From IMG/VR virus record IMGVR_UViG_2703719355_000006, positions 1-6,118 of that record: a DNA stretch of 6,118 nucleotides. The stretch is one strand, 5' to 3'. The DNA is from a virus. Lineage: Duplodnaviria; Heunggongvirae; Uroviricota; Caudoviricetes. The translations under genes were made by a program, and so were the position numbers. This document shows, piece after piece, positions 2,721 to 3,767 of the stretch. Numbering within the stretch: the first letter of the stretch is position 1; every line of letters begins with the position of its first letter. The notes beneath the pieces were generated by a model. It made no database searches, was not told the origin of the DNA, and was given only the letters and a program-made list of their open reading frames with translations.

Positions 2721-3767
2721 TCAGTTATCCTTTAATAACCTATACAGTTTTGTAGGGGTACATCCTGAGGATATTGTTAAGTTCGTAGCACGCCTTTTCC
2801 GCCCATCATCGTATAAACGAAAACCAGTAGTAGACGAATTTTCTGCGTCAAAAACTATAGACAGTATAGCGTCCCCAGACTTTTTTTGCCATTCGCATGT
2901 GCCGTTAGTTGGTTTCGTCATCTGTAGACGCCAGTCAAGAACGCCATCACTTATAGCTGAGAGATCGTTTAGTACATCTAGTACGGATTGATATCTTTCA
3001 TTTGGATCTACATGAATGCATTTGTTCACTATTGTTATTAATTTTTTATGTATATGGGGAGGATACTCTTTTAATGGATAGCAGCCATTAATTATCGACT
3101 CTCTGAGTTGTTCAATCGTGCTAAATGCAGATCTTTCTCTTTCAAAATTATCATGTCCAACACACATTCTATATATGGTTAATCCTGCCTGATATATGTC
3201 ATATGTGAAATTATAATCATTTGTTGATAAAGAAAAATATTCCGGTGGCACATGAAAATGATATCCAAACTCAGGCGCAGCTCTCGATTCCTCATTGACT
3301 AACTGAGATAATCCAAAGTCAGATAGCATGGCCTCATTTCTGTTTGATATCATAATGTTATTAGGTTTTATATCAAAATGCATAAGACCTTTTGAGTGTA
3401 TATGATAAAGTCCGCTTAAAAATTGAATGGAATACCGTATTATCTCCCTGCTTGTAAGATTATTTTTTTTCATTAATTGGTTTAGCGAACCATTATGATA
3501 AAATGGCATGGCTATATAGATATTACTCTCACATTGAGCAGCATACTGAACTTGCACAATATTTGGATGTGCATGTTTATAGAGAAGCCTTGCTTCATTA
3601 AAGTAGTCGTCGTGGTTAGTGTTTTCTTTTTTTTCTATTTCTTTAATCACCAAGTCATGAGCTAGGTGTCTGTCATGAGCCAGATATACTTTTGAAAAAC
3701 AACCCTGTTCTTCTAGATCACTTATCCATTCGAATTCTACATCAGCTCTTTTGTATGGAGTTAGCAT
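2721..3767 (-). CDS. eukaryotic-like (Hanks-type) Ser/Thr/Tyr protein kinase, 348 aa; Stk-like prophage kinase
   Basis: Complete ORF; ATG (3767-3765) preceded by GGAGG with a 7-nt spacer; 7-nt overlap with the stop of the upstream 153-aa gene. Kinase motifs in order: Gly-rich loop EQGCFSKVY, beta3 lysine in LVIKEI, catalytic loop HFDIKPNN (HRD-type with catalytic Asp), DFG in LSDFGLS, APE-like PPEY. About 33% GC, lower than flanking cI and N. Confidence 0.9.
   Translation of the reverse strand: MLTPYKRADVEFEWISDLEEQGCFSKVYLAHDRHLAHDLVIKEIEKKENTNHDDYFNEARLLYKHAHPNIVQVQYAAQCESNIYIAMPFYHNGSLNQLMKKNNLTSREIIRYSIQFLSGLYHIHSKGLMHFDIKPNNIMISNRNEAMLSDFGLSQLVNEESRAAPEFGYHFHVPPEYFSLSTNDYNFTYDIYQAGLTIYRMCVGHDNFERERSAFSTIEQLRESIINGCYPLKEYPPHIHKKLITIVNKCIHVDPNERYQSVLDVLNDLSAISDGVLDWRLQMTKPTNGTCEWQKKSGDAILSIVFDAENSSTTGFRLYDDGRKRRATNLTISSGCTPTKLYRLLKDN

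Follow-up and report, generated by a model that had tools for sequence, protein, structure and literature searches.

The minus strand of the window analysed here (6,118 nucleotides (nt), positions 1 to 6,118 of IMG/VR virus record IMGVR_UViG_2703719355_000006, Caudoviricetes) encodes stk, the gene of a Hanks-type protein kinase of 348 amino acids (aa), in the immunity region of a prophage. We are highly confident that the stretch as a whole is best explained in this way: stk is the Hanks-type kinase gene of a lambdoid prophage of the Shiga toxin (Stx) type with the immunity of phage 933W, and it is coupled to the gene directly upstream of it, L0083. The finding of stk is in itself already known and the feature is a characterised gene (Tyler & Friedman 2004; Friedman et al. 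2011); the new point is its obligate partner gene. By its arrangement stk is not a gene on its own: it forms a two-gene cassette with L0083, in which it comes second and is translationally coupled to the first gene. More tentatively, we propose that Stk could be the effector half of an unnamed anti-phage cassette, made up of a RuvC-fold pseudo-nuclease and a Hanks kinase and present in hundreds of species of several phyla, in which the partner would be required for regulated activity as a sensor or a brake. The two genes are:

2721..3767, minus strand: stk, Hanks-type protein kinase, 348 aa (open reading frame (ORF), Pfam Pkinase match, identity with 933W Stk)
3761..4222, minus strand: L0083-like partner gene, 153 aa (RuvC fold, identity with 933W L0083)

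The L0083–stk gene pair

The stop codon of L0083 overlaps the start of stk by 7 nt (ATGCTAA). A scan of one genome per species gave 491 stretches that encode a relative of the kinase, and 80 loci were kept, from Alpha-, Beta- and Gammaproteobacteria, Bacteroidota, Ignavibacteria and one cyanobacterium. The partner immediately precedes the kinase gene, on the same strand, in every one of these 80 loci. The two genes are −10 to +9 nt apart in 79 of them and +46 nt apart in the remaining one, and in most cases the stop codon of the partner overlaps the start codon of the kinase gene. In the reverse test, the kinase gene was found directly 3' of the partner in 71 of the 72 viral contigs retrieved via the partner, the exception being a contig in which the partner is truncated.

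The settings of five distant, full-length Stk homologues were the immunity region of a Proteus prophage, an island in Pseudomonas next to an integrase and Abi_2, the tail-gene region of an Acinetobacter prophage, a place beside a LlaJI-type restriction system (LlaJI/AAA_5) in Elizabethkingia, and one beside a type I methylase (type I restriction-modification genes) in Vibrio. An ORF of 152–155 aa stands 5' of the kinase gene in all five settings, overlapping or abutting its start, and these ORFs are homologous to L0083 (37–68% identity). We found no description of the partner gene or of the cassette in the literature searched, from which most subscription journals were outside coverage, so that novelty is unproven.

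These settings also bear on the possibility that the kinase mainly regulates lysogeny or induction of its own prophage, much as the kinase-kinase-phosphatase module does in the Pf prophages of Pseudomonas, and excludes other phages only incidentally. In the window stk does lie within the immunity operon, where it is co-transcribed with cI, and a prophage-borne kinase-kinase-phosphatase module that steers both lysogeny and defence is known (PMC11341870). However, the cassette also occurs outside immunity regions or prophages (the Acinetobacter tail region, the Pseudomonas island, Elizabethkingia and Vibrio), there is no repressor to regulate at those sites, and the cassette encodes no phosphatase. 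We regard such a regulatory role as decidedly improbable.

The partner is made in the lysogen, apparently in abundance. In phi24B lysogens P2 and P3, encoded by the two genes that separate cI from stk, were detectable on 2D gels (Riley et al., PMC3342100), and their transcripts were restricted to stable lysogens, that of P3 reaching about five orders of magnitude above cI (PMC3342100). The accessions given there identify them: NP_049484.1 is the DUF3024 protein (L0084, P2) and NP_049483.1 is the RuvC-like protein (L0083, P3), which is why we assign this expression to the partner.

Structure comparison gave L0083 a RuvC fold at 12–15% identity to RuvC, and the protein is labelled 'RuvC-like' or 'resolvase' in PHROGs, RefSeq and the phi24B record. 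It matched neither RuvC nor any other family in Pfam and no model in PADLOC. A profile of the partner family searched against PDB sequences returned chance matches only (E > 0.4), and the relationship to RuvC is therefore visible at the fold level only. When the same profile was aligned with E. coli RuvC (hhalign), the probability was 1.4% and the alignment covered the N-terminal half only; this weak match was used solely to set the register of the ILG-x-[D/R] motif.

In this register, RuvC resolvase and L0083 differ at the active site. RuvC has the catalytic residues Asp7 and Glu66, whereas L0083, which stands in an operon with a kinase, has Arg or Lys there: among 80 distinct L0083-family sequences, position 7 (ILGV-R against ILGI-D in RuvC) is Arg in 77 and Lys in one, and position 65, aligned with Glu66, is Arg in 76 and Lys in four. 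Strand β1 (residues 1–12) has no conserved acidic residue, and the first Asp of the RuvC-type tetrad is missing. In RNase H-like nucleases, the first metal ligand lies on strand β1 in every case. The residues that are conserved in the partner family are E68, E140, R47, D52, R78, E82, E87, S91, S92 and Y97. With the active-site geometry read from sequence register and secondary structure, L0083 would be a pseudo-nuclease or a much-altered enzyme, and a canonical Holliday-junction nuclease is unlikely.

This bears directly on a rival explanation, in which the RuvC-fold protein itself does the damage, as a nuclease that destroys phage or host DNA, and the kinase is only its sensor or its activator by phosphorylation. 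We consider this assignment of roles unlikely because the first metal ligand of the partner is missing: β1 offers no conserved acidic residue, position 7 is Arg or Lys in 78 of the 80 sequences, the residue aligned with Glu66 is basic as well, and there is no Pfam RuvC match. In addition, PMC3681748 ascribes exclusion to the activity of the kinase and the mass phosphorylation of tyrosines.

The kinase and its counterpart in 933W

Phage 933W (AF125520.1) served as the reference for comparison. The window kinase is identical to 933W Stk (AAD25427.1 / NP_049482.1) at 348 of 348 aa, and the two genes differ by 3 synonymous changes in 1047 nt. L0081 and L0083 are 100% identical to 933W at the DNA level, CI is identical at 235 of 235 aa, and the DUF3024 protein differs from 933W L0084 by 3 aa. 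The two phages thus have the same kinase protein, the same gene order (cI, DUF3024, L0083, stk, L0081, tM), the same operators and the same repressor. An earlier note on this DNA, made from the sequence alone, had suggested that the gene is likely related to that of 933W Stk and holds the corresponding place, and the complete identity of the protein, the identical flanks and the exact oR1–oR3 operators bear this out. Left of pL the window departs from 933W, with its own N/nutL module and its own ORF at 1136–1561; because of these differences, its prophage is a mosaic relative of 933W and not 933W itself.

The window aligns with Stx-converting phages at ∼98% identity, and no complete E. coli genome or phage record spans >80% of it (megablast). 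Of 5426 complete E. coli genomes, 224 contained the stk sequence, in nearly all cases with an identity of at least 99%, and the representative of its 90% protein cluster (P0001) is 100% identical to the window Stk. A shortened form of Stk, 220 aa long and 100% identical over 63% of the length (cluster P0013), represents 330 member sequences. Furthermore, an IS629 or IS1203 transposase lies inside the window-matching stretch in phage JLK-2012, in bovine strains of E. coli O157:H7 and in others. In view of the transposases and the 220-aa form, the kinase or its surroundings may be disrupted in a fair number of strains.

The stk product matched the Pfam family Pkinase (PF00069) with E 2.2e-46 and 158.8 bits over residues 21–260 (gathering threshold 31.7 bits), which answers the profile check that the earlier note had proposed; it also matched PK_Tyr_Ser-Thr (E 4.6e-29). 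The kinase domain spans approximately residues 12–270. The motifs VIK (40–42, with Lys42), HFDIKPNN (130–137), DFG (150–152) and PPEY (174–177) are accompanied by the αC Glu58 (NEAR) and by Arg258 (PNERY). In an alignment of 53 full-length Stk homologues (39–86% identity), K42, E58, H130, D132, K134, P135 and N137 were invariant, as were D150-F151-G152, P175-E176, D190 and R258. The Hanks catalytic set is thus complete (the VAIK Lys, the αC Glu, the HxD Asp, the catalytic-loop Asn, DFG and APE), and its invariance indicates that the catalytic machinery is under selection.

Of the core Hanks motifs listed in the earlier note, VIK, HFDIKPNN, DFG and PPEY were found, with their catalytic residues invariant in the homologues, but its 'Gly-rich loop' holds in part only: the loop EEQGCFSKV (19–27) keeps just G22 of the canonical GxGxxG, together with S25 and V27. 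Since HFD takes the place of HRD in the catalytic loop, Stk is a non-RD kinase. Both the GxGxxG loop and the HRD arginine are frequent among Hanks kinases and not obligatory.

The AlphaFold2 model of Stk has a kinase fold with a predicted local distance difference test (pLDDT) score of 89.5, and the solved structures closest to it are the Ser/Thr kinases PDK1, CaMKII, AMPK and Aurora, at ∼20% identity. Four strands and a helix at about residues 290–347 of the model make up most of a C-terminal domain (about 280–348) that is specific to the family, and W279 and W293 are invariant in the 53 homologues. A bacterial tyrosine kinase (BY-kinase) of the Wzc/Etk kind, a P-loop ATPase with Walker A and B motifs, was ruled out because Stk has the protein-kinase fold; Stk is set apart from the BY-kinases in PMC3681748 as well.

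The eukaryote-like fold, with animal kinases as the nearest solved structures, and the occurrence of stk in Stx phages of clinical enterohaemorrhagic E. coli (EHEC) are in keeping with the suggestion originally made for the EHEC Stx-phage kinase, namely that it is a virulence factor acting on the mammalian host. We find this very hard to sustain. An EDL933 derivative lacking stk on top of etk and wzc formed attaching-and-effacing lesions as before, and Stk had little or no activity in uninfected cells (PMC3681748). Close full-length homologues, together with the partner, occur in soil, marine and insect-associated bacteria that have no animal host, and scans with Pfam and NCBIfam gave no secretion-related family match in Stk.

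The function of Stk is known from the literature. PMC3681748 describes Stk of prophage 933W as a eukaryote-like tyrosine kinase that becomes active upon HK97 infection and takes part in phage exclusion, with little or no activity in uninfected cells. It is listed together with lambda Rex as a prophage-borne abortive-infection system blocking HK97 in PMC6356687, which like PMC3681748 cites Friedman et al. 2011 (PMID 21985444), and its expression is under the control of pRM and confined to stable lysogeny (PMC3430580). What the earlier note had said of the 933W kinase, that it is activated by HK97 and causes abortive infection, agrees with PMC3681748 and PMC6356687. Because the protein and its flanks are identical to those of 933W, the window Stk is expected to show the same tyrosine autophosphorylation and the same HK97-triggered exclusion.

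The course of events is as follows. In the lysogen, stk is transcribed from pRM as part of the repressor operon (cI, DUF3024, L0083, stk and L0081, ending at tM), and according to the literature its product remains nearly silent as long as the cell is uninfected. Upon infection by HK97, a phage product reportedly switches Stk on; the active kinase autophosphorylates and modifies tyrosines in many host proteins, and the cell dies without phage release, i.e. by abortive infection. The L0083 partner would control Stk: it may either sense the phage trigger or hold the kinase back until the trigger lifts this brake. Control of the kinase as sensor or brake is the most likely role for L0083 that we infer from the gene pair.

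Several points weigh against this interpretation. By its sequence (DIKPNN) and its fold (PDK1, CaMKII, AMPK) Stk resembles a Ser/Thr kinase: the loop HFDIKPNN is of the Ser/Thr type D-x-K-P-x-N and does not have the HRDLAARN/HRDLRAAN pattern of Tyr kinases. Given this loop and these structural neighbours, the reported Tyr specificity is atypical and not predictable from sequence. Recombinant Stk reportedly autophosphorylates on Tyr, a mutant of the Lys being dead, and the purified recombinant protein is said to do so alone, in which case the partner is not needed for catalysis. Finally, the evidence for any role of the partner comes from gene linkage.

The HK97 product that triggers Stk is reported to be gp41; a literature search linking HK97 gp41 to a tyrosine kinase returned nothing relevant. 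In the HK97 genome (NC_002167.1, 1787–3192), the stretch between Gp40 and Gp43 (kil) holds erf and a single small ORF for which two alternative starts are annotated. As these are the sole genes there, gene 41 would by elimination be the one for an Erf-like single-strand annealing protein. If gp41 is indeed the trigger, one may speculate that the partner could sense a phage recombinase or the branched DNA made by it.

Operon, immunity region and neighbouring sequence

The remaining features of the window are:

4692..5399, minus strand: cI repressor of the 933W immunity type, first gene of the stk operon (HTH_3 and Peptidase_S24, 933W identity)
4290..4631, minus strand: DUF3024 gene (L0084-like, 113 aa), between cI and the low-G+C cassette (Pfam DUF3024, E 2e-31)
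2554..2718, minus strand: L0081-like small ORF, 54 aa, last gene of the operon (933W L0081 identity)
2534..2555, minus strand: intrinsic terminator tM/tRM ending the pRM transcript after L0081 (8-pair stem with 6 G-C pairs, plus a T run)
5392..5462, no strand assigned: operators oR3, oR2 and oR1 and the two divergent promoters pRM and pR (operators: exact 933W matches)
2299..2327, minus strand: pL-like promoter (TTGATA-17-CATTAT), left boundary of the immunity region (promoter scan, consensus match)
1757..2182, minus strand: N antiterminator ORF, probable start ATG at 2101, not part of the kinase cassette (Pfam N_peptide, E 7e-25)
1136–1561, minus strand: second low-G+C ORF, 141 aa, 34.5% G+C and 24.6% at third codon positions (PHROG 4658)

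The operon runs in the order pRM, cI, DUF3024, L0083, stk, L0081, tM, all between oR and oL. The operators oR3, oR2 and oR1 (5392–5406, 5424–5438 and 5448–5462) match those of 933W exactly. An oL-like operator at 2303–2317 overlaps the pL-like promoter and differs from oR3 at 3 positions; by its position, the element at 2299–2327 would serve as pL/oL. The strong terminator after L0081 is the same element that is annotated as tM in 933W and as tRM in phi24B. A promoter scan showed no convincing internal promoter in the stk operon and no promoter-like match in the 67-nt gap upstream of L0083. A stand-alone 'moron' with a promoter of its own is unsupported, as the scan gave 11 promoter-like matches against 10.3 in shuffled sequence.

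L0081 (PHROG 4063) starts 2 nt past the stk stop codon and extends to the terminator. Proteus prophages have a 53-aa ORF in its place (locus L003, 5053–5214), which is lacking in the Pseudomonas, Acinetobacter, Vibrio and Elizabethkingia cassettes. The DUF3024 gene matched the PADLOC candidate defence family PDC-S43 (E 2e-42) and may be a second, independent lysogen-expressed defence gene; when the neighbouring ORFs of the window were scanned with PADLOC, no other defence model was matched. This gene also adjoins cI in the Proteus prophages and is absent from the cassettes outside immunity regions.

The G+C content is 41.1% for the window, 35.4% for stk, 34.8% for the L0083-like gene, 37.6% for the L0081-like ORF, 45.5% for cI and 45.6% for the DUF3024 gene. 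L0083, stk and L0081 together form a low-G+C block (2554–4222) with 35.5% against 43.2% in the rest (chi-square p = 8e-8), and the DUF3024 gene lies outside it. The figures that the earlier note had given, ∼33% for stk and ∼55% for cI, were thus incorrect: the compositional break that it had described is real, but it amounts to ∼10 points and not to 22, and it concerns three genes and not stk alone. Its claim of a horizontally acquired insertion is supported, because of the low-G+C block and because the same cassette is found in unrelated genomic contexts and other phyla, although the unit is three genes and the contrast in G+C had been overstated.

Just left of pL, at 2279, the homology to 933W ends; it starts again at 1131, and within 1132–2278 the N allele and nutL differ from those of 933W. 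A direct comparison of the window N with 933W N showed no similarity, so that it is a different allele, and the N part is ∼95% identical to N of phage SH2026Stx1 and of several Stx2a phages. An Arg-rich motif, GNAKTRRHERRRKLAIER, is present in the N protein, and the minus strand has a boxB-like hairpin, GCGCTGACAAAGCGC, at 2218–2232; we take the two to be of the N/boxB type of phage P22. The stretch thus looks like a clean module swap between the immunity and the antitermination modules. The ORF at 1136–1561 fills the slot of the unrelated 933W gene L0079, in a stretch that is poorly covered by phage records. It had no Pfam or PADLOC match and is possibly another moron.

Known defence systems and the control of Stk

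The closest parallel in position is RexAB of lambda, which occupies the same slot as stk (downstream of cI, upstream of pL and on the pRM transcript) and does the same kind of job, lysogen-expressed abortive infection triggered by a superinfecting phage. Nevertheless, the two have no relationship in sequence or fold. Rex acts by membrane depolarisation, Stk by protein phosphorylation.

Stk2 of Staphylococcus epidermidis and S. aureus (Depardieu et al. 2016) is, like Stk, a Hanks-type kinase that causes abortive infection through broad phosphorylation, in its case upon activation by the phage protein PacK. It differs in being host-encoded, in being described as a single-gene locus, for which no RuvC-fold partner is known, and in phosphorylating Ser/Thr. 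The window Stk scored 122 bits with the NCBIfam model Stk1/PknB, for which the equivalog cut-off is 450 bits, a likeness of the kinase domain only, and none of the four genes scanned with NCBIfam was above any family cut-off.

The best PADLOC match of Stk was MAD6 of the methylation-associated defence system (MADS; E 7e-50), with 122.1 bits to the NCBIfam MAD6 equivalog (NF047741), below its cut-off of 460 bits. In contrast to Stk, MAD6 belongs to the multi-gene mad system, and its models, of 612 and 659 positions, have roughly double the length of Stk. The PADLOC hidden Markov models for PD-T4-6, which come with no curated cut-off, match the kinase domain alone (Stk 20–276; best E 1e-37, at most 128 bits), and the PHROG family of Stk itself scores 475 bits. 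PD-T4-6, an E. coli Ser/Thr kinase defence, is defined as a single gene, whereas the partner gene is invariably present with Stk. Automatic tools will probably label stk as PD-T4-6 all the same.

To our knowledge, very few abortive-infection systems that act through a kinase have a known phage trigger, and Stk is one of them. The linkage described here suggests that the labels 'single-gene PD-T4-6 kinase' and 'RuvC-like Holliday junction resolvase' are incomplete or misleading for this family. A RuvC-fold partner that is strictly linked to the kinase gene, translationally coupled to it and apparently abundant in the lysogen readily suggests itself as the control element that Stk has so far lacked, and would give a concrete handle on how the kinase is controlled.

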